The notes: generated by a model not told the origin, from the letters alone. Counted from the first letter of the stretch, positions 41,416 through 60,145 are shown. The stretch is DNA of 64,000 nt from Candidatus Harrisonbacteria bacterium (GCA_023255625.1 JAHFLF010000001.1:504074-568073); one strand, 5' to 3'. Made by a program: numbers and translations.

Positions 41416-43380
41416 ATGTATTCGCATAAAAAATTTGAACTTGTATCAGATTATGTTCCATCGGGTGACCAGCCCGGGGCTATTCAGCAATTAGTAAGCG
41501 GTTTAGAAAAAGGCAAGCGTTATCAAACGCTTCTTGGGGTAACCGGCTCGGGCAAGACCTTTACCATGGCGAATGTCATTGAAAAGATTCAGAAGCCGAC
41601 GCTCGTTATCGCGCCGAACAAAACTTTAGCAGCGCAGCTGTATCAGGAGTATCAGGCATTTTTTCCGCACAACAAAGTTTGCTATTTTGTGAGCTACTAC
41701 GATTACTACCAGCCAGAGGCGTATTTGCCGGTTACTGACACCTACATTGAAAAAGAGGCGATGATCAACGAGGAGATTGACCGCTTCCGCCATGTTGCGA
41801 CCTCTTCGCTTTTAACGCGCAGCGATGTCATCGTTGTTGCCTCGGTCTCCTGTATCTATAACCTCGGCGTGCCGGAAAACTATTTTGATTCCATTATTGG
41901 GCTTGAGGTTGGGCGCGCAATCACGAGGGGAGACTTAATGAAATGGTTAATTAAAATCGGATTTACGCGCAACAACATTGGTGCCAAGCGCGGCACATTT
42001 CGTATCCGCGGGGATGTGTTTGAGGTCTATCCGGCAGCCGAAGCAGTGACTTATAAAATTACGCTTTCGCCGGAACAAGCCGTGACCGAACTCGCCGTCG
42101 TGGATACGCTCACGCGTAAAGTCAAAGAACAATTAAAAGATTTAATCATCTTCCCGCCAAAACATTTTGTTACAACGATGCCAGAGCGGGAGCGTGCCAT
42201 AAAAGATATTAAGGCCGAGTTGAAAGAACGGCTGAAATATTTAGAAAAAAATAAGTTGCTGCTGGAAGCGGAGCGGCTACAGCGGCGCACAAAATATGAT
42301 GTTGAGATGATCGGAACACTTGGCTTTTGCCACGGTATTGAAAATTATTCACGGCACTTGTCTGGCAAGCCGCCTGGATCGCCGCCCGATTCTTTGATGT
42401 CGTACTTTCCGAAAGATAAGAACGGCAAGCCGGATTTTTTGACTATTATTGATGAAAGTCATATCGCCGTGCCGCAGATTGCAGGCATGTACGCCGGCGA
42501 CCAGGCGCGTAAAAAAACGCTGGTTGAATTTGGCTGGCGTCTGCCATCCGCCATGGATAACCGCCCGCTTTCATTTAAGGAAATTTTTGGGCAGGAGTTT
42601 TCCGCCGGAGGCGGATCCGCCTCCGGCGGAGAGGAGCGCATCGGCCAGACGATTTTTACTTCCGCCACGCCGGCGCAGTATGAAAAAGAGCATGCATCAC
42701 AAGTCGTTGAGCAGATCGTCCGCCCGACTGGGCTTGTTGATCCGCCGATTGAGGTGCGCCCGGTTTATTCTCCCTTTCCTAAAGGGAGTACCGCACAAGC
42801 GGGGAGGGATTTAAATCCTCCGTCCGGAGTACCGGCCACCTCCTTTAAGAAAGGAGGAATAAAACAGTGGACCCAGATCGACGATGTCATCGCTGAAACC
42901 ACCGCGAATATTAAAAAAGGCGAGAAGACCTTAATTATCACGCTGACCAAAAAACAGTCCGAGGAGCTAGCGCAGTTTTTAACTGACAAAGGATTCCGTG
43001 CCAAATTTATGCATTCAGATACGCTTACTATGGAACGCACCGAAATTTTGAAAGGCCTACGCAGCAACGAGTTTGATGTATTGATCGGCGTGAACTTATT
43101 GCGTGAAGGGTTAGACTTGCCCGAAGTTTCGCTCGTGGCAATTTTAGACGCCGACCGCGAAGGATTTTTGCGCTCCGAAGTCTCGCTCATCCAAACCATG
43201 GGCCGTGCTGCGCGTAACCTTGGTGGCCGCGTTATTTTGTATGCTGATACCATGACCGGCTCCATGAAACGGGCGATGGACGAGTGCACCCGCCGCCGAG
43301 CAATCCAGCTGGAATACAACCGCAAACATAAGATAACACCTAAGTCTATTAAAAAAGAAATAAGAGAGTTTGGTCAGTAG
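41416..43380 (+). CDS. uvrB: Excinuclease ABC subunit B
   Basis: GVTGSGKTF, beta-hairpin region, DESH, helicase motifs and overall collinearity with UvrB; carries two in-frame palindromic insertions (42601..42630 and about 42762..42860). Confidence 0.9.
   Translation: MYSHKKFELVSDYVPSGDQPGAIQQLVSGLEKGKRYQTLLGVTGSGKTFTMANVIEKIQKPTLVIAPNKTLAAQLYQEYQAFFPHNKVCYFVSYYDYYQPEAYLPVTDTYIEKEAMINEEIDRFRHVATSSLLTRSDVIVVASVSCIYNLGVPENYFDSIIGLEVGRAITRGDLMKWLIKIGFTRNNIGAKRGTFRIRGDVFEVYPAAEAVTYKITLSPEQAVTELAVVDTLTRKVKEQLKDLIIFPPKHFVTTMPERERAIKDIKAELKERLKYLEKNKLLLEAERLQRRTKYDVEMIGTLGFCHGIENYSRHLSGKPPGSPPDSLMSYFPKDKNGKPDFLTIIDESHIAVPQIAGMYAGDQARKKTLVEFGWRLPSAMDNRPLSFKEIFGQEFSAGGGSASGGEERIGQTIFTSATPAQYEKEHASQVVEQIVRPTGLVDPPIEVRPVYSPFPKGSTAQAGRDLNPPSGVPATSFKKGGIKQWTQIDDVIAETTANIKKGEKTLIITLTKKQSEELAQFLTDKGFRAKFMHSDTLTMERTEILKGLRSNEFDVLIGVNLLREGLDLPEVSLVAILDADREGFLRSEVSLIQTMGRAARNLGGRVILYADTMTGSMKRAMDECTRRRAIQLEYNRKHKITPKSIKKEIREFGQ
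42601..42630. repeat. 30-bp perfect palindrome TCCGCCGGAGGCGGATCCGCCTCCGGCGGA, in-frame in uvrB (encodes SAGGGSASGG)
   Basis: Seen directly; identical copy in dus (60020..60049) and a near-identical copy in nfo (56058..56087). Confidence 0.85.
42762..42860. repeat. Roughly 100-nt in-frame insertion in uvrB made of three consecutive small palindromes
   Basis: Hairpins CTCCC..GGGAG, GGAGGGATTTAAATCCTCC, CCTCCTTTAAGAAAGGAGG; insertion of about 33 aa between the conserved IEVRPV and TQIDDV blocks relative to canonical UvrB. Confidence 0.4.
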
Positions 43381-43623
43381 CATAAAACCTGCCCCGTAAT
43401 GAATCAGCAGATTCTACTACCGGGGTTACCCCGCGTGGTATCACAAAGGGGATTCGGGAGTTTGGGGCGTAATTTGTTTGACAAGTTTTAACGAGGGTGT
43501 ATTATATTCTCTACATGTTTAGATCAATAATCACTACTAAGTGTACGACTACCAAGACTCTCTCCTGCGAGTGGGTGGTTATTTCTATGGTTTAACATTT
43601 TTAGAACCAACGAAATTTTTTAA

Positions 43624-43656
43624 AACCGCTCTATCGCCGAGAGCGGTTTTTGTTTG
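43624..43656 (+). terminator. Rho-independent terminator
   Basis: AAACCGCTCT/AGAGCGGTTT stem followed by a T-run. Confidence 0.6.
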
Positions 43657-43733
43657 CGTGCTGGATTCTGTCTCTCGCTGGAGCGAGAGACAAGGCGGGA
43701 GACAGAATCAGTTCGTGAAATAGGAGGTTCAGC

Positions 43734-44543
43734 ATGTCTGGTGAACGGTTTTATGTCGATCAAGATGCCGCAGCAGAGATGCTGCGCACCCGCACCCCAC
43801 TCCGGGATCGGGTGGAGTGCTGGTGGGCACAGCAGGGGTTCGCCTTCCCCGATGTCTTCGCTCGTCATCATCAGATCGGCTTCGTTTCGCGACACCTGGC
43901 CACGGCGCGGTTTGAGGACGCGGCCTTCGTCGTGATGGCGGAGCTGATGGGGCTGCGGCCCGTCTGGTCCACCTACATCGGTGATGAGTTCGTCACCTTC
44001 TCGCCGGTCAAGTGCTCGTATGTGCAGCCCCTCGTGTTCGATCGGTTCGCCGGCAAGCCCGATAAGCCAGAACCGGTTCTTCGCAAGGTTCGTCTTGCGA
44101 ATCCAGAGTGCTGTCAGGGCGAGCGACTCAACAGGATCATGGTGCAGGGCGGCAGTTCGCTCGTCGCGTGGCACCAGAACCGGCTTCTCACGATGTACCC
44201 AGGTGCGCTCGTCACGGATCCGACCGAGATCTATCGGCGTCTCGGTGGTGCGCGCAACTACTATGTCTTCCTCCTGTCGCTCGCGGCGGCGCATGGCGTC
44301 CTCTTCGAGGATTTCCATGGAGGCGAGACGGGGGAGCCACTGATGAAGTTCACGCGGGAGATCTTTGAACCCGCGTTCGACAAGGTCGCCGAGCTGTTTG
44401 GCGCACCACCGGTGGTGGTCCGGCTCCCGTGGTGGCGCGAACTCGGTTACTATGTGTCTGAAGCAGATCTCGTGAACGGATGGAGAGACAGCCCGGCGCT
44501 CAAGCATCTCGCCAGGGCGCACAGCCCTTGCGCTCGGATGTAG
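43734..44543 (+). CDS. GC-rich hypothetical protein (269 aa), unknown function
   Basis: AGGAGG ribosome-binding site; nested inverted repeats in the 5' leader; about 62% GC. Confidence 0.5.
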   Translation: MSGERFYVDQDAAAEMLRTRTPLRDRVECWWAQQGFAFPDVFARHHQIGFVSRHLATARFEDAAFVVMAELMGLRPVWSTYIGDEFVTFSPVKCSYVQPLVFDRFAGKPDKPEPVLRKVRLANPECCQGERLNRIMVQGGSSLVAWHQNRLLTMYPGALVTDPTEIYRRLGGARNYYVFLLSLAAAHGVLFEDFHGGETGEPLMKFTREIFEPAFDKVAELFGAPPVVVRLPWWRELGYYVSEADLVNGWRDSPALKHLARAHSPCARM

Positions 44544-44595
44544 CGGACTCGCACGAGGGGCGGTTACGGCCGCCCCTCAAAAAATAATTCATATT

Positions 44596-45558
44596 ATGCG
44601 GTATTATACATCTATGGCTTACACCATGATTGAATTCATAAAAAAGTTGTATGCGCTTGGGGAGCGGCAGTTTGAGAAAGAGCAACAGGCAGCTGTTTTA
44701 ATTCGAAAAGAGCTTGAGGCGTATCATGTACCATATCGGACTGAACATTTTACGATGAATCTGCCCCGTTTCAAGAAGGCAGAGTTGTCTGTTGATGGAC
44801 ATACTATTCCGTGTGTAGCCACCTCACTCGTATCTGGCAAGATCACATCGCCTAATCCGTTGATTAGTTCGCTCACCAGTTCTCAGAATTTTCTACATAA
44901 CTCAAATATTAATTTTAATCAGCTTTGCAGGTCTATATCGCGCAGCAATCATTATTTTGCGCCTTCAGTGGCCGTACATGCGCATGATGTAAAACATTTT
45001 TTGGGAGCAGAGTCTGTTCAGGGAACAGTTATAGTTCATAAAGTCAGACATACGGCTACCAACATACTGGTGGGTAATAGTAAAAATCCTCGCTATGTTG
45101 TTTTTTCGCATTTTGACTCTCTGTATGGGGGTGCGGTTGATAATGCGAGCGGTACAGCGCTGTCTTTGTATCTTGCTACGCAGCACAAAGAGCTTTTGGC
45201 GCATACACTTTTTGTTTTCAGCGGTAACGAAGAACTTTCATATGACGAACCCATTTACTGGGGGCATGGCTATCGGGTTTTTGAAGCTAAACACGGGAGC
45301 GCTCTCAAGCGGGCAAAACATATATTTGTTATCGATTGCATTGGCTTTTCCAAAACAAATTTTGTTAGAGATCAGAAGGTCGTTATATTGGGTTTCCCGG
45401 TCAAATCACTTAGCACTATTATCAATAAAACTACATTAGTGATAGGTGATTACCAAAAGATGATGACTTTTTATCACAGCGATTTAGATACGCCCGAACT
45501 GATTACGGAAGCAGAGATGCGGCGAGCGGCGCAGGCAATGATTAAAAAATTATCATAA
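44596..45558 (+). CDS. M28-like zinc peptidase family protein
   Basis: HFDS...GAVDNASGTA metal-binding block. Confidence 0.5.
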   Translation: MRYYTSMAYTMIEFIKKLYALGERQFEKEQQAAVLIRKELEAYHVPYRTEHFTMNLPRFKKAELSVDGHTIPCVATSLVSGKITSPNPLISSLTSSQNFLHNSNINFNQLCRSISRSNHYFAPSVAVHAHDVKHFLGAESVQGTVIVHKVRHTATNILVGNSKNPRYVVFSHFDSLYGGAVDNASGTALSLYLATQHKELLAHTLFVFSGNEELSYDEPIYWGHGYRVFEAKHGSALKRAKHIFVIDCIGFSKTNFVRDQKVVILGFPVKSLSTIINKTTLVIGDYQKMMTFYHSDLDTPELITEAEMRRAAQAMIKKLS

Positions 45559-45561
45559 TAT

Positions 45562-45984
45562 ATGGCACAAGATTTTTCACGGCGGTTGGCGATCGTAGTC
45601 CGCAGGGATATTGAGAGCTGGCAGACGACTAATACCATCGCGCACATTGCGGGGCGGCTAGGGCATGACATTAAAGAGTATTTGACCGGCAAAATCTTTA
45701 CCACAAAGGACGGCATGAGTGTGCCGCGCAATTCGCAGTATCCGATTATTGTGTTCCAGACAGAGGGGATTGAGAAATTACGAGTTTTCCTCGGCGAAGT
45801 GCGGGTCGCTCAACTGCCGCATCTTGCGTATATTCGAGAGATGATTGATTTTGAAGACGATGACCAGCTCCAGGCCGCGCTCGGACAAAAGAATGACGCA
45901 GAGGTTGAGTATCTTGGCGTTGGCGTATTTGGCGACAACGACACTCTCAAAAAGCTGACCAAGAAGTTTAGTTTGTGGAAATAA
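45562..45984 (+). CDS. DUF2000-like small protein (tentative)
   Basis: 140-aa ORF; weak family resemblance only. Confidence 0.35.
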   Translation: MAQDFSRRLAIVVRRDIESWQTTNTIAHIAGRLGHDIKEYLTGKIFTTKDGMSVPRNSQYPIIVFQTEGIEKLRVFLGEVRVAQLPHLAYIREMIDFEDDDQLQAALGQKNDAEVEYLGVGVFGDNDTLKKLTKKFSLWK

Positions 45985-46062
45985 ACTTTTTGTAGTAAAG
46001 TCCTATTTGTATCGTATACCCCCTTATATTCAAAAAGGCGGGCGTTCTGCATTATGAACTCT

Positions 46063-46134
46063 TTGTCATTCTGACGTACGCGGAAGAATCTCGCCGAAAG
46101 ACGGGTCGAGATCCCTCGGCTTCGGGATGACAAC
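46063..46134. repeat. MITE-like palindromic element, intergenic copy upstream of uvrA
   Basis: TGTCATTCTGACGTACGCGGAAGAATCTCGCC-GAAAGAC-GGGTCGAGATCCCTCGGCTTCGGGATGACAA; imperfect inverted repeat about 72 nt. Confidence 0.7.
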
Positions 46135-46139
46135 TAGAT

Positions 46140-48833
46140 ATGAAAAAACCAAACGAATTCATTAACAAAATTGTTATCAAGGGCGCGCGGGTTCACAACT
46201 TGAAGGATGTGAATTTGGAGTTGCCCAAAAATGAGCTGATTGTTTTTTCGGGGTTGTCGGGGAGTGGAAAAAGTTCGCTTGCATTTGATACGATTTTTGC
46301 GGAGGGGCAGCGCCGGTATGTTGAGTCTCTTTCGCCATATGCGCGGCAATTTTTGGGCCAGATGGAGAAGCCGGATGTGGACGAGATTACCGGGCTCTCA
46401 CCGGCCATTGCCATTGATCAAAAGGCGCACTCGCATAATCCGCGCTCAACCGTGGCAACGCTTACCGAAATTTATGATTACATGCGCGTATTGTTTGCCC
46501 GTGCTGGCGTGGCGTACTGCCCAACCTGTGGTCGCGCTATTCGTAAAATGGCGCCAGAAGAAATTGTAGACACTATTCGCGACGAGGCGGCGAAGCGTAA
46601 GGTGCAGCATGTCACGATCATGGCCTCAATGGTGCGTGGACGAAAAGGCGAGTACTTTCAACTGCTTCAGGATTTGTTTCGCGATGGATTTAACGAGGCG
46701 CGGATTGATGGCAAGACGGTTTCGCTGCACGAAAAAGTTGAGCTGAAGCGATATGGTGCGCACACGATTGATCTGGTTGTAGACAAGGTCATGCCCTCGG
46801 ACAAGTCTCGATTATTTGAGGCGGTGGAGACGGCGCTGACCAAAGGCAAGGGGTTAATTTCAGTTGCGTTTGGGGATCCGGCAACCGTTCGTCATTCTGA
46901 GCGCAGCGAAGAATCTCGCCGGAAAAAGGGGCGAGATCCTTCGGGCATACCTCAGGATGACAAAGGGGAGGATGTGCCGCAGTGGGAGCATGACCTTGAG
47001 GCGTCAAAAAAATTAGACAGCGAGATCCTTCGGCTTCAGGATGACAAGCAGGGAAACGAACAAATGTTTTCGGCGCACTGGAGCTGCCCGCACGACGGAT
47101 TTTCGTTTCCGGAGATTGAGCCGCGCCTGTTTTCATTCAACAGTCCATTTGGCGCGTGTGAGGAGTGCCATGGCATTGGGCATGATTTTTTTGACTCGGC
47201 AAAGGTCTGTGCAAGGTGTAATGGCGCGCGGCTGCGCCCCGAGGTACTATGCATCCGGCTCGGCGGTAAAAATATTGACGAGATTGTGTCGCTGACAATT
47301 GACGAGGCCTATGAATTTTTTGCGGACATTGAGCAACACTTGTCTACGAGCCAAAAAGTAATTGCCAAAAATGCTCTGAAAGAGATTACTGACCGTTTGG
47401 AATTTTTGCTGGAGGTTGGGCTGGATTATATAACGCTCAAGCGCGAGAGCGGCACCCTCTCTGGCGGCGAGGCGCAGCGTATTCGGCTGGCATCGCAGAT
47501 CGGCAGCAAACTTTCCGGCACGCTGTATGTTCTGGACGAACCAACGATTGGTTTGCACGAGCGCGACAATGAGCGGCTCATTAAGATTATGAAGGAGCTG
47601 CGCGACCTGGGCAATACGCTGATTGTGGTTGAGCATGACGAGCGAGTCATTCGCGAAAGCGATTATTTTGTGGATATTGGCCCGGGGCCGGGAGTGCACG
47701 GCGGGCAGATTGTGGCGGCCGGAGAGATGCCAGGAATTTTAAAAACTGCAGGCAAGGAATCTTTGACAGCGCGGTATTTGAGAGGTGAGGAGGAGATTGT
47801 AATTCCAAAAACACGGCGCGAGAAAGATAAGGGCTGGCTCAAGATTATTGGCGCAACTGCCAACAATATTCAAAATTTAAATGTAGAAATTCCGCTGGGA
47901 CGGCTGGTCTGCGTGACGGGTGTATCAGGTAGTGGGAAATCAACGCTGCTAGAGGAAGTTTTGTATCGCAACACGCAGAAGATGCTTGGCGGGTTTCAAA
48001 ATCTTGTAGGAGTGTCAAAAATACTCGGCGTTGAGTTTATCCGCCACATTATTGAGATTGACCAGTCGCCGATTGGCAAGACGCCGCGGAGCAACCCGGC
48101 AACTTACACCGGCGTGTTTGGCCCGATTCGTGATTTGTTTTCAATGCTTCCTGAAGCCCAGGAGCGGGCCTACGGCGCCGGCCGGTTTAGTTTTAATGTG
48201 CCTTCGGCGCGTGGCGGTGGGCGGTGTGAGGCCTGTGAAGGTGCTGGAGCCAAGATTATTGAGATGCACTTTTTGCCGGATGTTTTAGTAACCTGCGATG
48301 TCTGCCGCGGTAAGCGGTTTAATGCCGAGACACTGGAGGTGAAATATAAAAATAAAAGCATTTCACAGGTTTTAGACATGACGGTTGAGGAGGCGCTTAC
48401 GCACTTTGACGGCGTGTACCGCATTACCGATCACTTGCGGGTCATGAACGAAGTGGGACTTGGGTACATTAAGCTCGGCCAATCAGCGACAACGCTCTCG
48501 GGCGGTGAGGCCCAGCGCATTAAGCTGGCAAAAGAGCTCGCTCGGCCCATGGCACGCCATGATTTGTTTATTTTAGACGAGCCGACGACCGGACTGCATT
48601 TTGAAGATGTTAAGATGCTGCTGGAAGTTTTACAAAAGTTAGTTGAAAAGGGGAACACCGTGATTTTAATTGAGCACAATATGCATGTGATTAAAGTGGC
48701 GGATTATTTGATTGACATGGGGCCGGAGGCGGGCGTGCGTGGCGGCAAGGTGATTGCGGAGGGGACGCCGGAAGAAGTGGCGAGAAGTGCAAAATCAATC
48801 ACGGGGAAATATTTGAAAGAGTATTTGAGGTAG
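46140..48833 (+). CDS. uvrA: Excinuclease ABC subunit A
   Basis: Two ABC ATPase modules (GLSGSGKSSL; GVSGSGKSTL), zinc-finger Cys clusters, LSGGE signatures; contains a full and a half MITE-like element in-frame (46891..46973; 47020..47048). Confidence 0.9.
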   Translation: MKKPNEFINKIVIKGARVHNLKDVNLELPKNELIVFSGLSGSGKSSLAFDTIFAEGQRRYVESLSPYARQFLGQMEKPDVDEITGLSPAIAIDQKAHSHNPRSTVATLTEIYDYMRVLFARAGVAYCPTCGRAIRKMAPEEIVDTIRDEAAKRKVQHVTIMASMVRGRKGEYFQLLQDLFRDGFNEARIDGKTVSLHEKVELKRYGAHTIDLVVDKVMPSDKSRLFEAVETALTKGKGLISVAFGDPATVRHSERSEESRRKKGRDPSGIPQDDKGEDVPQWEHDLEASKKLDSEILRLQDDKQGNEQMFSAHWSCPHDGFSFPEIEPRLFSFNSPFGACEECHGIGHDFFDSAKVCARCNGARLRPEVLCIRLGGKNIDEIVSLTIDEAYEFFADIEQHLSTSQKVIAKNALKEITDRLEFLLEVGLDYITLKRESGTLSGGEAQRIRLASQIGSKLSGTLYVLDEPTIGLHERDNERLIKIMKELRDLGNTLIVVEHDERVIRESDYFVDIGPGPGVHGGQIVAAGEMPGILKTAGKESLTARYLRGEEEIVIPKTRREKDKGWLKIIGATANNIQNLNVEIPLGRLVCVTGVSGSGKSTLLEEVLYRNTQKMLGGFQNLVGVSKILGVEFIRHIIEIDQSPIGKTPRSNPATYTGVFGPIRDLFSMLPEAQERAYGAGRFSFNVPSARGGGRCEACEGAGAKIIEMHFLPDVLVTCDVCRGKRFNAETLEVKYKNKSISQVLDMTVEEALTHFDGVYRITDHLRVMNEVGLGYIKLGQSATTLSGGEAQRIKLAKELARPMARHDLFILDEPTTGLHFEDVKMLLEVLQKLVEKGNTVILIEHNMHVIKVADYLIDMGPEAGVRGGKVIAEGTPEEVARSAKSITGKYLKEYLR
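46891..46973. repeat. MITE-like palindromic element, full copy in-frame within uvrA (encodes ..RHSERSEESRRKKGRDPSGIPQDDK..)
   Basis: Near-identical to the uvrC copy at 51058..51130. Confidence 0.7.
47020..47048. repeat. Half-copy (right arm) of the MITE-like element in uvrA (encodes SEILRLQDDKQ)
   Basis: GCGAGATCCTTCGGCTTCAGGATGACAAG. Confidence 0.5.
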
Positions 48834-48843
48834 CGGCGGTATC

Positions 48844-48968: not shown

Positions 48969-49082
48969 TCAATATTTAGTTTGATAATTTTATATAGGTG
49001 GAGTAGGGTAGAAAAATGACTGTGTGCAGAGTCCCTGCGCAGGTCAAGCCGGCTACGAGCTGGCGGAAGGAGAGAGGAAATC

Positions 49083-50327: not shown

Positions 50328-50361
50328 ACTAGTCGCTTATTCGCGCGAATTAGAGACTAGT
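50328..50361. promoter_or_regulatory. ACTAGT-flanked palindromic motif with ATTCGCGCGAAT core in the uvrC upstream region; an inverted 24-nt copy lies inside uvrC (51265..51288)
   Basis: TCGCTTATTCGCGCGAATTAGAGA is the exact reverse complement of 51265..51288. Confidence 0.45.
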
Positions 50362-50639: not shown

Positions 50640-52118
50640 ATGAACTTGGCGATTTATGAAAAATTAAAGAAAATTAGTAAAAAATTTCCGAACAAGCCAG
50701 GGGTTTATTTCTGGCGAAATAAAAAAGGTGCGCCGCTGTACATTGGCCGGGCGGGGAGTTTAAAAAAGCGGATTGCGAATTACTTCGTCACGCCGAAGCT
50801 CGGCGAAGGCGGATCTAGATTAGACCCGCGGATTCGCGAGATGACGCAGGTGGCGCATTCGCTGGATTTTGAAGAGACGGATTCTTTGCTTGAGGCGATT
50901 GTGCTTGAAGCGAATTTAATCAAGCAATACTGGCCCAAATACAATATCTTGGAAAAGGACGGCAAGTCGTTCATTTATCTAGTTATCACCGACGAAGAAT
51001 TTCCAAGACTGCTTCTTGTCCGCGGCCGTGAGTTGGATAAATATTCCGTTAGCTTACGTCATTCTGAGCGCAGCGAAGAATCTCGCCTCAAAACGGAGCG
51101 AGATCCTTCGGGCGTACCTCAGGATGACAAACAAAAAAAGAAAAGGAAGCAGTACGGTACTTTGGGCGTATTTGGACCGTACCAAAGTTATTATCTATTG
51201 CGCAAAGCTTTAGAGATTGTCCGCAAAATTTTCCCGTATTCAAATTGTCGTCCCCCTGACTATTCTCTAATTCGCGCGAATAAGCGAATAGTCAGTAAGC
51301 CCTGCTTTCACTATCAGATCGGCTTATGCCCGGGCGTGTGCGTTGGCGCGATTGATGCAAAGACATACCGTAATAATATCCGTAATTTAATATTGTTTTT
51401 CCGCGGTGAGAAAAAGCAACTGCTCAAAAAATTGCAGAAAGAAGAAGCTTTACCCTCCAAAACTTTTGGGAAAAGTTTGGGAGGGCGAGACGCTATCTTG
51501 GCGCTTAAGCAGGTTCGGGACACGGCGCTTTTGGCTGATTCTGATGTTTTGCTGCGTGGTAATCAGCTCACTGACCGACGGATTGAGGGGTATGACATCA
51601 GCCACTCCGGTGGCAAACAGCCGGTGGGGGCAATGGTGGTGTTTGAGAATGGCGAGCCGGCGCGCGATCAGTATAGGTTGTTTAATATCCGTGGCCCTGC
51701 ATCCTCTTCCGCTATCAACTATAAACTATCAACTATAAACTCCTCCGATGATTTGGCCATGTTGCAGGAAGTTTTGGGGCGGCGGCTCAAACATTCCGAG
51801 TGGCCGTTGCCGCAGATTGTGTTTGTTGACGGTGGCGTAAATCAGGTACGGCGGGTGAATGCCGTGCTTAAGCGGCATAATTTGACATTGCCGGTCGTTG
51901 GATTAGGAAAAGCTGGCCAGCATGCCGCATCGTCGGCCGGGCAGGACAAGTTGGTCGTAGCAAATGCAAAAAAAACCGGTAAAGAATTAATAATTGCGTC
52001 ACGGAATCTATTTCAGCAAGTGCGTAACGAAGCGCACCGGTTTGCAATCAGTGCGCAGCGCCGGCGCGGCAAAAATACTTTCTTGCCGCGCCGACTGCCA
52101 CCTATCTATCCGTCTTAA
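50640..52118 (+). CDS. uvrC: Excinuclease ABC subunit C (short form; ends after the RNase-H-like endonuclease domain, with no C-terminal helix-hairpin-helix (HhH) tail)
   Basis: GIY-YIG N-domain (PGVYFW...PLYIGRAG.LKKR...YF), the UvrBC-interaction region, the C-terminal endonuclease motif EAHRFAI; contains an in-frame MITE-like element (51058..51130) and a palindrome (51257..51298). Confidence 0.85.
   Translation: MNLAIYEKLKKISKKFPNKPGVYFWRNKKGAPLYIGRAGSLKKRIANYFVTPKLGEGGSRLDPRIREMTQVAHSLDFEETDSLLEAIVLEANLIKQYWPKYNILEKDGKSFIYLVITDEEFPRLLLVRGRELDKYSVSLRHSERSEESRLKTERDPSGVPQDDKQKKKRKQYGTLGVFGPYQSYYLLRKALEIVRKIFPYSNCRPPDYSLIRANKRIVSKPCFHYQIGLCPGVCVGAIDAKTYRNNIRNLILFFRGEKKQLLKKLQKEEALPSKTFGKSLGGRDAILALKQVRDTALLADSDVLLRGNQLTDRRIEGYDISHSGGKQPVGAMVVFENGEPARDQYRLFNIRGPASSSAINYKLSTINSSDDLAMLQEVLGRRLKHSEWPLPQIVFVDGGVNQVRRVNAVLKRHNLTLPVVGLGKAGQHAASSAGQDKLVVANAKKTGKELIIASRNLFQQVRNEAHRFAISAQRRRGKNTFLPRRLPPIYPS
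51058..51130. repeat. MITE-like palindromic element, full copy in-frame within uvrC (encodes ..RHSERSEESRLKTERDPSGVPQDDK..)
   Basis: GTCATTCTGAGCGCAGCGAAGAATCTCGCC-TCAAAACGGA-GCGAGATCCTTCGGGCGTACCTCAGGATGACAA. Confidence 0.7.
51257..51298. repeat. 42-bp imperfect palindrome inside uvrC (CTGACTATTC...ATTCGCGCGAAT...GAATAGTCAG)
   Basis: Seen directly; its core is shared with the promoter-region copy. Confidence 0.45.
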
Positions 52119-53205: not shown

Positions 53206-53303
53206 AATGTTAATGTATTAATTAATAATGCGTATACAAATATAGACGGTCTGCAAGACAGAATATTTCAAAGTTTGCTTGTAGGCGCTGGCTCGGGTAG
53301 TAT

Positions 53304-54260: not shown

Positions 54261-54272
54261 TTGATGAGCGGT

Positions 54273-54821
54273 CTACCCTTTTTTTTCCCCGCCTTCAGAA
54301 ACAAGGTTGACTTTGAACATCTGCGATACAACATTGCCGCTATTGTCTAACAAAGCTGGGTCTTGCTGTGGGTTGGTAAAAATTCCGTTACCGTCATCGC
54401 CGTGGAGCATGGCGTGATAGCTAGCTCCGGGAGTCAGCGTCATGATTAGCGAGGTGTTTGCGTACTCGCCTGGTTGATACAATTTGCTGGTGGCTACAAT
54501 TGGCCCCAGCTGCCCGCTATTATCTGCGTGGATTTCTACAAAACAGGAGACACGACAGGAAAATTTTTTGATGAGCACTGCGACACTATCCGGGTCCTGA
54601 TTATCGAGTGCTATGCTGTTGTCGATATTAGTGAGCGCGGTTGCTGGTGTCGGCGGTGTGCTTGCCGGCCAGAAGATGACTGCACCGAGAATCAGCAAAA
54701 TGATTGCTATGGCAATGCCGATAGCTATAGCTTTTTTGCTTTTGGCAGGTTCGACTTGGCTCGGCGAGACAGGCATACCGGAGTTTCCGGGAGTCCACGG
54801 GCTATTTTTTGTTTCGTCCAT
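54273..54821 (-). CDS. Membrane-anchored hypothetical protein
   Basis: ORF with a TM near the N-terminus. Confidence 0.4.
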   Translation of the reverse strand: MDETKNSPWTPGNSGMPVSPSQVEPAKSKKAIAIGIAIAIILLILGAVIFWPASTPPTPATALTNIDNSIALDNQDPDSVAVLIKKFSCRVSCFVEIHADNSGQLGPIVATSKLYQPGEYANTSLIMTLTPGASYHAMLHGDDGNGIFTNPQQDPALLDNSGNVVSQMFKVNLVSEGGEKKG

Positions 54822-54840
54822 ATTTTTGTTTTAATTTTTT

Positions 54841-55176
54841 TTAGGAGAGCGCTTTTTTTGCTGCTCTGGTTTTCTTACGATTTTTTTCCTGTCCCGCCAG
54901 AAGATTTGCTATTTTTTGATCCAGCAGGTCGTATGCCGCCTGCCTTATTGTATCGCGTGGAACATTTGCGAACTTTGAATCCGGCTGGCGGTCAACAGTT
55001 CTATCGATGGCGCTTTTGGCATTTTCTGTCCGTTCGTGGACCGTTCCTATGCCGTATGTTTCTGTAAATACAGTGAAACAGGTTTCTGCTATGTCGCCAG
55101 CCAGCCGCCTTAATTCGGCACTTTCATCACGGGCGCTCACTTCTTGTTTTGCAGGGTCAATTCCTTCGGATGTCAT
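54841..55176 (-). CDS. Hypothetical protein
   Basis: 111-aa ORF. Confidence 0.3.
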   Translation of the reverse strand: MTSEGIDPAKQEVSARDESAELRRLAGDIAETCFTVFTETYGIGTVHERTENAKSAIDRTVDRQPDSKFANVPRDTIRQAAYDLLDQKIANLLAGQEKNRKKTRAAKKALS

Positions 55177-55235
55177 GCTGCTATTATGACAGCAGTAGTA
55201 ATCTCAAAGCAAGCCCGCTATTATATACAGACGAT

Positions 55236-56150
55236 ATGGCTAAGTCCTTATTACATAGGCCGCTGCTTGGTGCCCATGTGTCTGCCGCGGGCGGACTGTG
55301 GAATGCAATTGATAACGGCGAGAAGCTTGGCGCGGAGTGCATTCAAATTTTTGGCGCCAGTCCGCGGAGTTATACAGCTAAACTCCCGACAGCTGAAACA
55401 ATCGTGCGTTTTCAGCAGCGGCTCAAAGAGAGTCCAATCAAAAAAGTGTATCAGCACGGGGCGTATCTGGTGAATCTTGGGAGCGCTGATACGGCGACCC
55501 TGAAGCGGTCAATTGGAAATCTAGCAGCACATCTAGAAATCGCAAACTTGATTGGTTCTGAAGGAGTTATTTTTCATGTGGGTTCGCCTAACGGCGGTGA
55601 TCGTCCGGCGGCGCTTGCAAGCGCCGCCGGAGCAATGAAAGAAATTTTGGGAAAAATAAAAGGCCCGGCGCAGCTCATTATGGAAAATTCCGGCAGCGTG
55701 AAAAAGATCGGCGGGAGTATCGCAGATCTAGAATGGATTTTCAAAAAAGTAAATGATCCGCGGCTCAAAATTTGCATTGATACCGCGCACGCGTTTGAAG
55801 CGGGCTTAATCGAGGCATACACACCGGCGAATATAAAAAAGTTTTTTGGCGCATGGGATGAAGCGGTCGGGTTAGAGAATGTAGTTGCGCTGCATGCGAA
55901 TGATTCAAAGACGCTCTATAATTCGCAAAACGATAAGCATGAGAATATCGGGCAGGGGTATATTGGTATTGCCGGGTTTCGGGCTTTGGCCGGTTTTGCG
56001 GCGAAGCCGCAAAACCGGCTGACCCACACCAGCTGGTTTTTAGAAGTTCCCGGGTTTCCCGCCGGAGGCGGGTCCGCCTCCGGCGGAGACGGGAAACAAA
56101 ACGGTCCGGATAAGCAGAATATGGATTTGCTGAAGAGCTGTTTTGGCTGA
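55236..56150 (+). CDS. nfo: Endonuclease IV (AP endonuclease family 2) with C-terminal in-frame palindromic insertion
   Basis: LLGAHVS..GG, the characteristic His/Glu/Asp metal ligands (HG.YL.NL; H.NDSK), start at MAKSLL. Confidence 0.85.
   Translation: MAKSLLHRPLLGAHVSAAGGLWNAIDNGEKLGAECIQIFGASPRSYTAKLPTAETIVRFQQRLKESPIKKVYQHGAYLVNLGSADTATLKRSIGNLAAHLEIANLIGSEGVIFHVGSPNGGDRPAALASAAGAMKEILGKIKGPAQLIMENSGSVKKIGGSIADLEWIFKKVNDPRLKICIDTAHAFEAGLIEAYTPANIKKFFGAWDEAVGLENVVALHANDSKTLYNSQNDKHENIGQGYIGIAGFRALAGFAAKPQNRLTHTSWFLEVPGFPAGGGSASGGDGKQNGPDKQNMDLLKSCFG
56058..56087. repeat. 30-bp palindrome CCCGCCGGAGGCGGGTCCGCCTCCGGCGGA, in-frame in nfo (encodes PAGGGSASGG)
   Basis: Differs from the uvrB/dus copies only at the outer positions of the left arm. 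Confidence 0.8.
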
Positions 56151-56164
56151 TAAACTAACGGTGT

Positions 56165-56980
56165 ATGAAAAAATATTTTTATTTTATCGGAATAGCCGTA
56201 ATTTTATTTTTTGCTGCACTTCTAATCTCGCGGCAGCCGAGTCGAGGGCTGATTGTAGATGAAATTAATAATATCCGCATTTATGAACCGCAGCCGGGTG
56301 ACACAGTCGGCCAGCCGCTTATTATTGTTGGTAAGGTGCGCGAGCCGGAAAATAATTTTAACTATCGTTTGTTGGATTCCGAAGGGCATCAGCTGGCTGG
56401 TAGTTTTGCTACCGCGGTCGCTATTGATGTCGGGAAATTTGGAGCATTCAGCGTAGTTTTAAATTACGGCGAGCCAGCCGGTAGCTCCGGTACTGTAGAA
56501 GTTTTTTCTCATTCTGCAAAAGATGGTGCCGTGATTGATCTGGTCCGGATACCGGTGAAATTAAAAAAAGAAGCGCGAACAGTCATCAAAGCATATTTTG
56601 ATTTACCGGCGACAAAAATTTCCAGCAATCCAAGTTTAATTATCGAGCAATGCGAGGGCGTCTATCCGGTGATGCGAGTTGTGCCAAAAACAACTGCAGT
56701 GGCCAGGGCCGCCCTGGAAGAGCTTTTCCAGGGTCCAAATTTGGCGGAACAGCGAGCCGGTTATACGACTCTGATTAATAAGGGGGTAAAGGTGAAAAGT
56801 TTAAATATTGAGAGTGGACTAGCAACAGTTGATTTGAGTAGCGATCTAATGTATCAAGTTGGTGGATCCTGCCGGGTCGGCATGATGATAGACCAAATCG
56901 AGTCAACGCTTCGGCAGTTCTCGAGTGTGCAGTCAGTTAAGATTTTAGTTGATGGGAATGCCGATGCCTTGCAGCCCTAA
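56165..56980 (+). CDS. Membrane-anchored Gmad2 Ig-like plus GerMN domain protein
   Basis: C-terminal GerMN-type pattern (...A.LEELF.GP...E...G..T.I..G..V.S..I..G.A.VDLS). Confidence 0.55.
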   Translation: MKKYFYFIGIAVILFFAALLISRQPSRGLIVDEINNIRIYEPQPGDTVGQPLIIVGKVREPENNFNYRLLDSEGHQLAGSFATAVAIDVGKFGAFSVVLNYGEPAGSSGTVEVFSHSAKDGAVIDLVRIPVKLKKEARTVIKAYFDLPATKISSNPSLIIEQCEGVYPVMRVVPKTTAVARAALEELFQGPNLAEQRAGYTTLINKGVKVKSLNIESGLATVDLSSDLMYQVGGSCRVGMMIDQIESTLRQFSSVQSVKILVDGNADALQP

Positions 56981-57060
56981 TTTGCAATTGTCAGTTTTGA
57001 CATGGCGGATTGAGATGTTATGCTGAATAGAACATTATTCAATATAAGTTTATAGTTTTT

Positions 57061-58287
57061 ATGTTTAAAAAAATATTGTTGGCGGTCGGGATACTGGCCG
57101 TAGCGTTTCCGGTCGCTGTTTTTGCGCAGGAAGTCGAAACACCAAAAGCGCAACTGCAACTGCAGATGGAAAATCTTAAGGCGCAGGTTGAAGCGATGAA
57201 TAAAGCAAAACTGGAGAAACAGGTAGAAGAGTTAAATGCTCGATTGAAGGCGACTCCTCCTACGGCTAGGCCAGATACGAATAAAGTACCACCACCTCCG
57301 AACATTGGTGTAAATGCAACTGTCGGTGTTGGCGCGGACGCTGTTTTACAGAACGGAACTGTTTCGAAGCCCCCGGCTATTCGTGGCGAAGTTCGTAAGG
57401 AGGTTCAGCAAGAGCGTCAAGAAATTAAAGATGTTCGTCAGGACGCGCGTCAGGAGATTAAAGAAATTCGAACTGAAAATCGCGGCGAAATAAAGGAACT
57501 TCGGCAGGGCGTAATGCAGGAGGTGAAAGAAAATCGCCAGGAGTTTCGTGAAGAGCAAAAAAATAATAAGCAGGAGTTACAACAGGATCGCAAAGATGGT
57601 CGCGTTGAGGTTCAGGTAGAGGTTCAGAAAATTCGCGCTGACGCATCTTTGACCGCAGAGCAGAAAGAAGAAAAATTACAGGAATTGCGGCGGCAGTTTG
57701 ATGAGCAGCGAAAGGCGGAAATGGAAAAGTTTCAAGAGGAGCGCAAGCAAGAGATGGATAAATTTCAAGCTGCGCAAAAGATAGCGCGGCAGCAGTTTGA
57801 AGTTAAGCGGGTGGCTGCACAGCAGGAATTTCAGGCCAGCTTGAAGGTGGTCAAAGATGAGCGGAAGAAAGAAGTTGCCGGTCGGGTTGTCGAAAACTTT
57901 AATGCAATTAATGCGAAGTTGACCGGGCAGATGGCTGAAACTGTTGGGAAGATTGATGCCGTTCTTGCCAAAATTGTTGCCCGCGCTGATGAGTTGGGCG
58001 GAGCGGGGAGAGATGTAGCCGCGGCCCGTACTGCAATCGAAAATGCCCAGTTAGCGATCAGTGCGGCGCGTACCGCAATTACTACGCAGACTGCCCGTTC
58101 ATATACGGTTGAGGTTACAACTGAAGCGAATCTAAAAACTGATTTTGGCGCAGTTCGAGTTCGACTGGAAGCCGACTTGAAGATTGTTCGCGTGGCTGTT
58201 GACGCCGCCCGCGATGCGGTCAAACTTGCCGGGGCGGCATTGCCCGGCGTAACCATAACTGCAACGACGAACGCGGTAGTTCAGTAA
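57061..58287 (+). CDS. Secreted coiled-coil protein with EIKE/RQE-rich repeats
   Basis: Signal peptide; low-complexity charged heptads. Confidence 0.5.
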   Translation: MFKKILLAVGILAVAFPVAVFAQEVETPKAQLQLQMENLKAQVEAMNKAKLEKQVEELNARLKATPPTARPDTNKVPPPPNIGVNATVGVGADAVLQNGTVSKPPAIRGEVRKEVQQERQEIKDVRQDARQEIKEIRTENRGEIKELRQGVMQEVKENRQEFREEQKNNKQELQQDRKDGRVEVQVEVQKIRADASLTAEQKEEKLQELRRQFDEQRKAEMEKFQEERKQEMDKFQAAQKIARQQFEVKRVAAQQEFQASLKVVKDERKKEVAGRVVENFNAINAKLTGQMAETVGKIDAVLAKIVARADELGGAGRDVAAARTAIENAQLAISAARTAITTQTARSYTVEVTTEANLKTDFGAVRVRLEADLKIVRVAVDAARDAVKLAGAALPGVTITATTNAVVQ

Positions 58288-58305
58288 TAATATATAAAAT
58301 ATTTT

Positions 58306-58542
58306 ATGGATAAAAAAATACCGACTTGGATTTTAGTAGTCGTTCTCGTTGTGGCCGCGGCCCTGCTTGTCTGGTGGATTTTGATGCAAAAACAGGAAGC
58401 TGCTTCGATTGCGAATCGCAGTTCTGAAAATGTTTCCAGTAATGTTCCTCAAAATGAATACGCGCAGGAACTTGATGGGCTGAATGAAGCCGAAGTTAGC
58501 GCCGAGTTTCAGCAAGTAGACGCTGATCTGCAGACCCTATAA
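58306..58542 (+). CDS. Small membrane-anchored protein (tentative)
   Basis: ORF. Confidence 0.3.
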   Translation: MDKKIPTWILVVVLVVAAALLVWWILMQKQEAASIANRSSENVSSNVPQNEYAQELDGLNEAEVSAEFQQVDADLQTL

Positions 58543-58588
58543 CGGATATTTTTCTGGGCCACTGTAATTTTGTGGTACAGTAAATTAT

Positions 58589-59068
58589 ATGTCTGTAAAA
58601 ATGTCGATCGCTGTTCTTGCAGTATTTGTTGTTCTTTCAGCAAACAATTTATACGCCAAGGAGACTGCTTCAATTTCTGATTCCGCACCGGTGCGGCTGG
58701 CGACGGCCGTGCTTACCGCCATCAACTCTTTTGCTAAAGGACAGGCGGAAAATTTGTCAAAAATCAAACAGAAAGTTGATGCAGAGGTAGCAGTCTTAAT
58801 CGCGCAAGAAAACGCCAGCACGACCAAGCCATTTGCTGCGGGTCAGCACATTGATAACCTCAATGATGCCGGCGGTGGTAGTATTGCAACCTCATCACCT
58901 ACCGCCGCACCCTCTTTAGAGCGATTGTCCAAACAGGCCTATTCTTGGCTTTTGTATGCGCTTATTTATATTTTGAGTACACCATGGCTGCTCTATAGTG
59001 TACTAGTAATTATTCTGTATTGGATTTATCGTTTCCACAGGCGGCGGCGGTTTGAGCGCGCTGGTTAA
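58589..59068 (+). CDS. Hypothetical protein with signal peptide and C-terminal TM
   Basis: ORF. Confidence 0.4.
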   Translation: MSVKMSIAVLAVFVVLSANNLYAKETASISDSAPVRLATAVLTAINSFAKGQAENLSKIKQKVDAEVAVLIAQENASTTKPFAAGQHIDNLNDAGGGSIATSSPTAAPSLERLSKQAYSWLLYALIYILSTPWLLYSVLVIILYWIYRFHRRRRFERAG

Positions 59069-59077
59069 ATCTAACTT

Positions 59078-60145
59078 ATGCAGCAAGGATTTTGGGCAAA
59101 GTTACAAAAGCCAATTTTTGCGCTTGCGCCGATGGCCAATGTTACGGACGCGGCTTTTCGGCGCATCATCGCGAAGTACAGCCGGCCGGCTGGGCCAGCG
59201 GTTTTTTGGACAGAGTTTGTCTCGGTAGAAGGATTATTATCACGCGGGCGCGAAAAGTTGCTGCCGGATTTTTGGTTCACGGAAGCCGAAAGGCCAATCG
59301 TGGCGCAGATTTTTGGCGGTAAGCCGGAGCAATTTTATGAAGTTGCCAAACTGATTGTTTCTCTTGGCTTTGATGGGATTGATATTAATATGGGTTGTCC
59401 AGACAAAGGCGTAGAAAAATCCGGCGGCGGAGCGGCATTAATAAAAAATCCGAAGCTCGCGCAAAAAGTTATTTTAGAAACTAAGCGGGGAATAGCTGAT
59501 GCGTCCGCCAGTGGACGGAGTTCAATTCCGGTTTCAGTAAAAACGCGTCTCGGATATAATAAAGATGAAATAGAAACCTGGTTGCCAGCGCTGTTTGAAA
59601 CTGGTTTGGCGGCGCTCACAATTCACCTGCGCACGCGCAAGGAGATGAGTTTGGTGCCCGCGCACTGGGAATGGGCGAGCCGGGCCGTCGCACTACGCGA
59701 TAAATATGGTCCGGAAACTTTGCTACTCGGAAACGGCGATATTCCGAATCTTACTGTCGGCCGTCAACTGTCCGCTGACCACGGACTTGATGGCGTCATG
59801 CTCGGCCGCGCTATTTTTGGCAATCCGTGGTTGTTTGCCGAAAAAATTCCAACCACCGAAGAAAAATTGAGCGTCTGCGTAGAGCATACAAAATTATTTG
59901 AGGAATTGTATGGTGCAGGCACCGTCCAGTCCGTCATCCCGAAGCCGAGGGATCTCACCCCTCGCATCAAGCCCTTTGACTTGATGAAAAAGCATTTTAA
60001 GGCCTATGTCAGCGGTTTTTCCGCCGGAGGCGGATCCGCCTCCGGCGGAGATGGTGGAGCATTAAAGGTACTGCGCATGAAAATGATGGAAGCGGAGACC
60101 GCGCAAGAGATTGAAAAGATTGTTGCGAATTTTTTTAAAAAATGA
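59078..60145 (+). CDS. dus: tRNA-dihydrouridine synthase
   Basis: N-terminal LAPMA..TD..FR, the catalytic-Cys region, the FMN-binding TIM-barrel pattern; carries a half MITE-like element (59933..59958) and the 30-bp palindrome (60020..60049) in-frame near the C-terminus. Confidence 0.8.
   Translation: MQQGFWAKLQKPIFALAPMANVTDAAFRRIIAKYSRPAGPAVFWTEFVSVEGLLSRGREKLLPDFWFTEAERPIVAQIFGGKPEQFYEVAKLIVSLGFDGIDINMGCPDKGVEKSGGGAALIKNPKLAQKVILETKRGIADASASGRSSIPVSVKTRLGYNKDEIETWLPALFETGLAALTIHLRTRKEMSLVPAHWEWASRAVALRDKYGPETLLLGNGDIPNLTVGRQLSADHGLDGVMLGRAIFGNPWLFAEKIPTTEEKLSVCVEHTKLFEELYGAGTVQSVIPKPRDLTPRIKPFDLMKKHFKAYVSGFSAGGGSASGGDGGALKVLRMKMMEAETAQEIEKIVANFFKK
59933..59958. repeat. Half-copy of the MITE-like element, inverted orientation, in-frame in dus (encodes SVIPKPRDLTPR)
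   Basis: GTCATCCCGAAGCCGAGGGATCTCAC. Confidence 0.55.
60020..60049. repeat. 30-bp perfect palindrome TCCGCCGGAGGCGGATCCGCCTCCGGCGGA, in-frame in dus (encodes SAGGGSASGG)
   Basis: Identical to the uvrB copy. Confidence 0.85.

Follow-up and report, generated by a model that had tools for sequence, protein, structure and literature searches.

A 64,000-nt stretch of DNA from Candidatus Harrisonbacteria bacterium (GCA_023255625.1 JAHFLF010000001.1:504074-568073), referred to here as the window, carries three copies of a GC-rich palindromic 30-mer inserted in frame in the unrelated genes uvrB, nfo and dus. The family to which these copies belong is real, widespread and apparently undescribed; the literature searched contains no account of the DNA sequence, of the encoded peptide in such a context, or of palindromic elements in the candidate phyla radiation (CPR). 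Judged from its sequence features, the family can be placed within miniature hairpin mobile DNA, a kind already known. The reading preferred here, with a probability of roughly 0.6, treats the 30-mer as a selfish double-hairpin element (DHE), non-autonomous and spread both by homologous recombination and by the action of what we infer to be a hairpin-recognizing enzyme.

Within the window, the A-form of the element, TCCGCCGGAGGCGGATCCGCCTCCGGCGGA, is found on the plus strand at 42601..42630 in uvrB (41416..43380, plus strand, 654 aa, identified by Pfam domains and PDB UvrB matches at E = 2e-219), where SAGGGSASGG constitutes UvrB residues 396-405, and again at 60020..60049 (plus strand) in dus, a tRNA-dihydrouridine synthase gene (59078..60145, plus strand, 355 aa), where the same peptide is encoded. 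The G-form, CCCGCCGGAGGCGGGTCCGCCTCCGGCGGA, is located at 56058..56087 (plus strand) near the C-terminus of the endonuclease IV encoded by nfo (55236..56150, plus strand, 304 aa, identical to P0121), where it encodes PAGGGSASGG; it is TCCGCCGGAGGCGGATCCGCCTCCGGCGGA with two base changes (T1>C, A15>G) that are compensatory within hairpin 1. All three copies stand in phase 0 of long open reading frames (ORFs), with the local peptides EFSAGGGSASGGEE, GFPAGGGSASGGDG and GFSAGGGSASGGDG, and the sequence and ORF check agrees with the placement and common phase reported in an initial annotation of this DNA. No match to the 30-mer at three mismatches or fewer appeared in any of 100 dinucleotide-preserving shuffles of the window, and a looser scan of the window returned no copies between 2 and 10 mismatches; the window thus holds three pristine copies and no decayed ones. 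The host organism is a member of the Patescibacteria (CPR), with its closest UvrB relatives annotated as Harrisonbacteria or Paceibacteria. Other assemblies of the same organism show 100% identity, whereas its next relatives reach 87% at most. Two contigs from separate assemblies, one in ENA and one in Logan, match the window at 100% over 18.8 kb and 6.3 kb; among independent assemblies, locus L122 includes the nfo and dus copies and locus L123 the nfo copy, and the Nfo protein is also encoded on a 601,890-bp NCBI contig.

The distribution of the family was established by two scans. A 24-nt core compared with one genome per GTDB species gave at least 118 loci, and a replicate scan of JGI/ENA metagenome contigs gave at least 120, making more than 240 loci overall, with many phyla represented. 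Groundwater wells at Hainich account for many of the metagenome matches listed, and CAWINB010000004.1 (868 kb) is another sequence that bears the element. By record title, the matches listed belong mostly to Patescibacteria (Saccharibacteria, Kaiser-, Doudna-, Pacei-, Adler-, Nomura-, Uhr-, Falkow- and Yanofskybacteria, and others), and at least eight phylum-level groups are named; non-CPR titles comprise Omnitrophota, Kiritimatiellia, Verrucomicrobiota, Lentisphaeria, Planctomycetia and Elusimicrobia, and single metagenome-assembled genomes (MAGs) labelled Deltaproteobacteria, Gammaproteobacteria, Bacteroidetes and Dehalococcoidia are also among the matches listed. An identical 30-mer (30/30 nt) is present across phyla, including Patescibacteria, Omnitrophota, Kiritimatiellia, Verrucomicrobiota, Elusimicrobia and others. 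The 122 sites of the genome loci and the window include 77 A-form copies (exact palindrome) and 27 G-form copies (C1/G15), the corresponding figures in the metagenome replicate are 84 and 21, and about 70% of the listed copies are identical; several genomes contributed four to six loci each. A few matches from cultured actinobacteria lack the element ends and are read as chance matches in Gly/Ala-rich coding DNA. With regard to vehicles, 2.9 million IMG/VR viral contigs yielded no match, and PLSDB plasmids yielded none either, the latter being a weak negative as the BLAST low-complexity filter was active.

Comparison with orthologs bears directly on whether the segment was inserted, and the alignments show all three window copies to be lineage-specific insertions, the segment not being ancestral. 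For UvrB, 116 of 120 homologs are without the segment and read ...FKEF/EERIGQ... (the slash marking the insertion point here and below), the window protein reads ...FKE-IFGQEF-SAGGGSASGG-EERIGQ..., and other filled alleles read KE-IFGxEF, the element, then E; relative to empty orthologs, the uvrB insertion amounts to 45 nt, made up of the 30-mer and of 15 extra nt beside it (ATT TTT GGG CAG GAG, encoding IFGQE, at 42583..42597 on the plus strand). For Nfo, 118 of 120 homologs lack the insert and read LEVPGF/DGxGPDK, with PAGGGSASGG following GF in the window. Both Dus orthologs compared are empty (YVNGF/DGA in L056, YSKGF/AG in L044), and the DNA of an empty dus ortholog, GGT TTC/GAC GGG, already contains the flank bases. 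Empty orthologs were found for the three window sites and for 10 further sites; such sites already hold TTT/AAA, TTC/GAG or TTC/GAC, so the flanks represent a target preference and lie outside the unit. The inserted unit is accordingly 30 nt and not about 42 nt, as had been proposed from the shared TTT and GAN flanks, which pre-exist at empty sites. An ancestral or convergent protein linker, conserved as protein over divergent DNA, was considered and rejected, since the segment is missing from orthologs and its DNA is conserved far beyond the codons on either side. The suggestion that the inserts form surface loops could be followed in UvrB, the sole host protein modelled: an AlphaFold2 model (predicted template modelling score, pTM, 0.80) gives a predicted local distance difference test (pLDDT) value below 50 only at the termini and at residues 396-406 and 452-476, the former being the inserted peptide and the latter a second insertion, both modelled as coil, and the inserted peptide in UvrB is therefore predicted to be a disordered loop.

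The unit itself is best described as a double hairpin. In the A-form, TCCGCC-GGA-GGCGGA is followed by TCCGCC-TCC-GGCGGA, each 15-nt half consisting of a 6-bp stem and a 3-nt loop; the hairpins are mutually reverse-complementary, and the whole 30 nt form a perfect palindrome. The halves are consequently an inverted pair with loops GGA and then TCC, in place of the tandem dimer of TCCGCC-N4-GGCGGA suggested initially. In the G-form, CCCGCC-GGA-GGCGGG followed by TCCGCC-TCC-GGCGGA, positions 1 and 15 change jointly (T-A to C-G), so that hairpin 1 is kept and the 30-nt palindrome is broken. Two perfect adjacent 6+3+6 hairpins are retained in 19 sequence types among the loci, with covarying stems (TCGGCC/GGCCGA, TCAGCC/GGCTGA, TCTGCC/GGCAGA, TCCTCC/GGAGGA and CCAGCC/GGCTGG) and variable loops (GGA, AGA, GAA, CAA, CGA or AAA on one side; TCC, TTC, TTG, TCG or CTT on the other); shuffles of the window gave 0-1 paired 6+3+6 structures (20 shuffles). 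Because diverged copies keep both hairpins by compensatory change, the unit is a double hairpin and not merely a palindrome. The variant TCCGCC-CAA-GGCGGA followed by TCGGCC-TCG-GGCCGA recurs in L067, twice in L121 and in L127, and the A, G and CAA/TCG-loop forms each occur at several sites and in several genomes; this recurrence identifies them as sub-families and not as random decay. A module chimera, in which CAAGGT-TCG-ACCTTG is joined to one half-element, was also observed, and apparent solo halves proved to be decayed doublets or hairpins with 4-nt loops. When folded as single-stranded DNA, the canonical form favors a single long hairpin (-19.2 kcal/mol, z = -6.9), and a diverged variant gives two hairpins (-12.8 kcal/mol).

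Since nearly all full-length copies come from MAGs, an origin as adapter, linker, assembler or contamination sequence had to be weighed, the more so as the element has a BamHI site at its center, looks like an engineered Gly/Ser linker, and can be affected by assembler fold-back: in one Doudnabacteria MAG, element-adjacent sequence is shared between L024 (1-30) and L043 (112-141) in inverted orientation, and one of these contigs begins inside the element, because the palindrome causes fold-backs or breaks in assembly. Such an artefact is nonetheless hardly credible. The element is seen in IDBA-UD, SPAdes, MEGAHIT and long-read assemblies from many laboratories, three independent assemblies of the host organism are 100% concordant, flanks are collinear with orthologs with the reading frame intact, and copies at orthologous sites have diverged with compensatory mutations, an evolutionary signal that artefacts cannot give.

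The insertion sites share a recognizable context, TTY/RAN-like, in genes and at some intergenic positions. On the 5' side, about 80% of copies have T at position -2, where G is never found, and about 50-60% have T at -1 and at -3; the 3' side is a mirror image, and the metagenome replicate shows the same flank triplets (TTT, CTT, TTC, TTG). The TT preference is equally strong on both sides, which are statistically independent (45 copies with TT on both sides, 57 on one and 9 on neither). No direct repeat indicative of target-site duplication was found at the junctions in filled/empty comparisons; a 3-nt duplication suspected in the window copies (GAG, GGG and GGT before TTT and after GAN) failed at other sites and in empty-site comparisons. 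A role as intrinsic terminator was likewise rejected, given T-rich 5' and A-rich 3' flanks on both strands and copies inside reading frames.

For the genome loci and window, 84 of 111 copies are spanned by ORFs of at least 120 aa, as are 86 of 110 in the metagenome replicate. Phase 0, read as SAGGGSASGG, accounts for 67 of the 84, with 10 in the PPEADPPPA phase and 7 in the RRRRIRLRR phase; in the replicate the three phases hold 75, 5 and 6 copies, respectively. Placement between codons thus characterizes 80-87% of ORF-spanned copies, because TTY/RAN in coding DNA is mostly Phe followed by Lys, Glu, Asp or Asn. Among available TTY/RA steps in host ORFs, 59% are in phase 0, since one of the phases cannot contain a TAA stop, and the observed excess is significant (p = 8e-5); target preference accounts for much of the phase-0 bias. 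The peptide added in phase 0 is S/P-A-G-G-G-S-A-S-G-G, and direct reading of the sequence reveals no stop codon in any frame of either strand. The 67 phase-0 host ORFs match 112 different Pfam families, with replication and repair hosts including Toprim (5), RecG (3), UvrB, UvrD (2), DnaE (2), DnaG (2) and TatD (2). Copies in CPR loci are mostly intragenic, whereas those in Omnitrophota and Planctomycetes-Verrucomicrobia-Chlamydiae (PVC) loci are mostly intergenic.

A double stem-loop that is identical in either orientation, has a length divisible by three and is kept by covariation might also be a 30-nt mini-intron, excised from RNA through its two stem-loops in the manner of IRE1/HAC1 or a bulge-helix-bulge, in which case the peptide would be absent from the protein. 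This is very unlikely: the phase-0 bias and stop-free frames are expected of translated sequence, many copies are intergenic, deletion of the element in silico restored no tRNA gene, and no Rfam family matches, the three window copies having no hit in Rfam 15 at E <= 1 and 12 PVC/Omnitrophota loci having nothing that overlaps the copies at gathering score.

Occupancy differs between related genes. The RecG genes of L013 and L092, which are 76% identical over the whole BLASTP alignment and 83-88% identical around the sites, are each filled where the other is empty, and a third RecG (L041) is filled at a third site; the L013/L092 alignment has four indel regions only, two of which are the element sites and a third the position of the L041 copy. 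Across eight pairs of orthologous filled sites, 349 of 960 flank nt differ, with changes at about half of the third positions, against 4 of 240 nt within the element (P about 1e-40); the copies are either much younger than their genes or actively kept uniform. Together with the patchy orthologs and the spread described above, these occupancy differences support the initial interpretation, namely a mobile palindrome that is accommodated in frame as a flexible loop, resembles Rickettsia palindromic elements (RPEs) at a far smaller size and belongs to no recognized family.

The same conservation could, in principle, signify a host function, such as a cis-acting DNA or RNA signal under selection (a protein site, a chromosome-organization or an uptake-type signal) that is forced into coding DNA in gene-dense CPR genomes. 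Conservation is extreme relative to flanking synonymous sites, the hairpins are maintained by compensatory change, and many hosts belong to replication and repair, an apparent enrichment; Patescibacteria are naturally competent, and the uptake sequences of Neisseria are biased to genome-maintenance genes. A cis-acting signal is nevertheless rather improbable. Occupancy is patchy among close relatives, with 2-5 of 120 orthologs filled per site, and the window has a low density of 3 copies per 64 kb; a specific recognition protein would not be common to the unrelated phyla in which the same sequence occurs, sub-families that differ in stem and loop are found side by side, and repair genes are long and abundant in small genomes.

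Evidence of exchange between lineages was obtained at two conserved genes. In YchF, 5 of 120 homologs are filled at the RIF/ED site; once the region is masked, the nearest neighbors of the filled alleles are empty, and filled alleles rank 83rd-119th relative to each other, a polyphyletic pattern, although all five share the downstream tract EDI(I/L)HxYGD..P.RD. At the DNA level, filled P0247 equals filled P0246 at every informative site from the 5' edge of the element to +71, whereas outside the tract P0247 agrees with its 95%-identical empty neighbor P0254 at most informative sites. The alignment identifies YchF as a recombination mosaic, in which the filled state was moved, or erased, with about 40 nt of flank. 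Similarly, the other filled UvrB alleles, P0077, P0079 and P0080, share the extra IFGxE block with the window protein at only 64-67% identity (ungapped columns, insertion region masked), and the near relatives of the window UvrB are all without both element and block; the extra 15-nt uvrB block may be a co-transferred flank. On these alignments, filled alleles are shown to pass between lineages at conserved genes with 15-40 nt of adjacent flank.

Such tracts lend some weight to a scheme with no dedicated transposition, in which uptake and homologous recombination, plus template switching or hairpin-primed repair at TT/AA, would suffice. No transposase could be linked to the element in its loci, no vehicle was detected among the 2.9 million viral contigs or the PLSDB plasmids, and the YchF tract and the shared extra UvrB flank recall the GC clusters of yeast mitochondria, which undergo the same recombination exchange with co-conversion tracts (PMC4478555). 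The scheme is unlikely, as homologous recombination alone could not have brought the element, with its consistent target motif and sharp 30-nt ends, to more than 100 non-homologous sites, and the sub-family structure resembles master-copy amplification.

Under the preferred reading of a selfish DHE, new sites would be colonized through a trans-acting protein that recognizes the hairpins in single-stranded DNA. The likeliest candidate would be a transposase of HUH/Y1 type, such as those of IS200 and RAYT, whose action leaves no duplication; hairpin-dependent elements without duplication are typically moved by HUH/Y1 enzymes (IS200/IS605, RAYT; PMC6006769, PMC3116915). Spread among lineages and phyla would be aided by DNA uptake and short-patch homologous recombination, a likely inter-lineage route in view of the cross-phylum identity, the competence of Patescibacteria and the mosaics, and the host would tolerate the element without using it.

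Several observations weigh against this reading. A tblastn search with a CPR Y1 query located seven RAYT-like Y1 genes in about 1.7 Mb of element-bearing loci, as distinct from whole genomes (L121 at 1350-2270, L069 at 5925-6720, L076, L141, L176/L243 and L235), and 7/7 are bracketed by hairpin repeats of their own, never by the 30-mer. All-against-all clustering of 1,924 locus ORFs as a search for a recurrent neighbor gene returned only housekeeping families. The symmetric, two-sided target is more in keeping with a dimer that works on duplex DNA than with the one-sided reading of IS200-type enzymes, and identity at 30/30 nt across phyla is unlike lineage-specific REP/RAYT systems. The difference between filled and empty sites is exactly 30 nt in only 3 of about 13 comparisons; in the remainder, one side has a further indel of 3-15 nt no more than a few codons away, which may be co-converted donor sequence or may reflect insertions surviving only in indel-tolerant loops, and a clean paste between near-identical genomes was not caught among these comparisons. 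A split "master" copy was also sought, and no exact-loop half-element stands alone among the loci; in addition, the host function that strong conservation could indicate, as considered above, would contradict a selfish element. As the RAYT-like genes carry other hairpins, no gene family recurs and the target is two-sided, the assignment to a particular enzyme is held loosely. Carry-over of flank from an earlier host site was not seen either, an all-against-all flank comparison giving only orthologous sites and local repeats.

Alternatively, and in our estimate doubtfully, the 30-mer might be an enzyme-free replicator of oligonucleotide size that arrives with scavenged DNA, is pasted at TT/AA by the replication and repair machinery, crosses phyla by natural transformation, and is selected to be harmless in six frames.

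Other hairpins occur in the window and in related loci. Two solo 16-nt hairpins share the stem of the element, with 4-nt loops: TCCGCC-AGCT-GGCGGA at 863..878, in the 5' leader, with 14 nt between it and the secE ATG (893), and TCCGCC-GGCT-GGCGGA at 5126..5141, 17 nt before the gatB ATG (5159), with 0.14 expected by chance. Their coordinates are as initially described; their loops differ from those of the 30-mer, of which they are possible relatives. The secE-leader 16-mer is identical in L101 and L121, and direct repeats ACGAATAA (5110 and 5150) flank the gatB hairpin, ACGAATAA abutting the gatB start codon. Some of the hairpins flanking CPR RAYT-like genes are likewise inserted in frame in genes; the L121 RAYT repeat, GCGGAGGTCGTACCTCCGC, is also found in frame inside the RAYT gene itself and at the C-terminus of a neighboring 5,406-aa protein.

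A second in-frame family in the window, a 75-nt near-perfect hairpin, is found at 46890-46964 in uvrA and 51057-51131 in a uvrC-like ORF, the copies being 93% identical with an RNA fold of -39 kcal/mol and the peptide RHSERSEESR.K..RDPSG.PQDDK. A third in-frame insertion, in uvrB at 42766-42870 (residues about 451-486, pLDDT <50), is composed of the hairpin modules CTCCCTTT/AAAGGGAG, GGAGGGATTT/AAATCCTCC and CCTCCTTT/AAAGGAGG. This UvrB loop is a CPR-wide hot spot with hairpin-derived peptides (VIPAKAGIQ..., RHSERSEES..., SPFSKGSTAK...); the RHSERSEES-type peptide of the 75-nt family occurs there in other CPR bacteria, and P0082 has a decayed 30-mer copy, SAKGGSASGG, in the same loop. In the window Dus, 59930-59986 encodes GTVQSVIPKPRDLTPRIKP, a 17-19-residue extra segment exactly where the L056 Dus has a G-form 30-mer, and its DNA holds a GAGGG...CCCTC hairpin, which suggests an insertion hot spot shared by different elements. 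Perfect or near-perfect palindromes on the core CTTATTCG/CGAATAAG are located at 4321-4356, 38855-38888, 50328-50361 and 51256-51295, with 9 occurrences of the core in the window versus 1-4 in shuffles.

With respect to neighboring sequence, a tRNA gene is situated no more than 50 nt from 9 of the roughly 125 double-hairpin copies, and no intact tRNA is interrupted. At L100 (5968-6034) and L025 (about 1410), a truncated 5' half of tRNA-Lys stops at the anticodon loop (TTTT/AA, CTT/AA) exactly at the element, and an intact tRNA-Lys is nearby. A tRNA intron was considered on account of several copies that abut tRNA-like sequence and was rejected, as removal restores no tRNA and the cases are truncated halves or neighbors. 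In one Omnitrophota MAG, the element is centered in a longer inverted hexamer array, (CAGGTT)n TT, the element, AA (AACCTG)n (L004 2424, L033 4543, L045 2152 and 6726, L079 1657), and in L028, L080 and L023 it lies within direct tandem repeats. Two Kiritimatiellia MAGs have the same 5' leader filled, between a TTGACA-type promoter and the AGGAGG ribosome-binding site of a lipoprotein-like gene, and a Verrucomicrobiota locus shares only 20 nt to the left of that leader element, AATTCAACGYATAGKAATTT; the loci compared are L059 1699, L109 7608 and L108 2582. Finally, a low-GC stretch of the window at 19742-24388 (39% versus about 47%) encodes a 1,548-aa NACHT-domain protein, whose gene may be a horizontally acquired defense-type gene.

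Confirmation would make the 30-mer the smallest dispersed mobile element on record for bacteria and the first bacterial counterpart of the mitochondrial GC-cluster/double-hairpin elements. Essential proteins of Patescibacteria are visibly reshaped by the 30-mer and by at least two further hairpin families, with in-frame hairpin insertions in all three uvr genes of the window; the consequences extend to gene calling, protein-family alignments, structure prediction and the assembly of Patescibacteria genomes, the last because contigs fold back at the palindrome. Moreover, identity at 30/30 nt across phyla makes the element a sharp marker for DNA that uncultured lineages have recently exchanged, and the sub-families with their compensatory changes offer a direct handle on the enzyme through phylogenetic profiling. 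An enzyme-free replicator, if true, would be smaller than any genetic element so far known to spread horizontally, and a general origin for loop insertions in the proteins of ultra-small bacteria.

Among known systems, DNA uptake sequences and uptake signal sequences occur at about one copy per kb, are lineage-specific and are recognized by a competence protein, whereas the 30-mer is cross-phylum at 3 copies per 64 kb. Miniature inverted-repeat transposable elements (class II) combine terminal inverted repeats with target-site duplication; the whole 30-mer is an inverted repeat, but it is without such duplication. The palindrome-associated transposable elements (PATEs) derived from IS200/IS605 are alike in having no target-site duplication, in hairpin ends read in single-stranded DNA and in Y1 mobilization in trans (enzyme family, PMC6006769); they differ in exceeding 100 bp, in having distinct ends and in inserting 3' of a one-sided 4-5-nt target, whereas the target preference of the 30-mer is symmetric and no partner transposase was found in its loci. 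REP sequences and REPINs similarly consist of short palindromic units, with the inverted doublet of two hairpins as the shared feature, and REPs are known for predicted folding as single-stranded DNA or RNA, high copy number and sequence sub-families (PMC3116915). REPs are, however, extragenic by definition (14 of 1,067 16-mers overlap genes in SBW25; PMC3116915), REPINs span about 70-110 bp with a spacer, and REP families are vertically inherited, lineage-specific and located beside their own RAYT; the 30-mer has 30 bp and no spacer, is mostly intragenic and identical across phyla, and flanks 0/7 RAYT-like genes. RPEs are palindromic repeats found in frame in many unrelated genes and tolerated as extra peptide (PMC10969869), a behavior that the 30-mer shares, although RPEs measure about 100-150 bp, add about 30-50 residues and are confined to Rickettsia, compared with 30 bp, 10 residues and several phyla.

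By analogy, and with no common descent implied, the closest systems in form and behavior are the mitochondrial GC clusters and double-hairpin elements, a class that includes yeast GC42 and related clusters, the Allomyces DHEs, the PstI palindromes of Neurospora and the repetitive hairpin-forming elements of sponges. To our knowledge, the enzyme that mobilizes them is unidentified, and their mechanism has been a puzzle for decades. In-frame copies in protein genes, e.g., var1/rps3, were reportedly described by Paquin et al. in 2000. The class is organellar and mostly intergenic, whereas the 30-mer occurs in bacterial chromosomes (free-living or episymbiotic, several phyla) and in CPR is mostly intragenic; there is no sequence similarity, and unlike the yeast clusters, which are flanked by AG/ACT direct repeats (PMC4478555), the 30-mer has no flanking direct repeats. 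Shared features are short GC-rich repeats (18-80 nt for the clusters) that are palindromic or double-hairpin in form and dispersed through DNA richer in AT, stems more conserved than loops, and rapid turnover; yeast GC42, in particular, combines a palindromic unit and constrained stems with fast turnover, inter-species exchange by homologous recombination, co-conversion tracts and the merging of hairpin modules, and the var1/rps3 cluster provides an occasional in-frame copy in a protein gene (PMC4478555).

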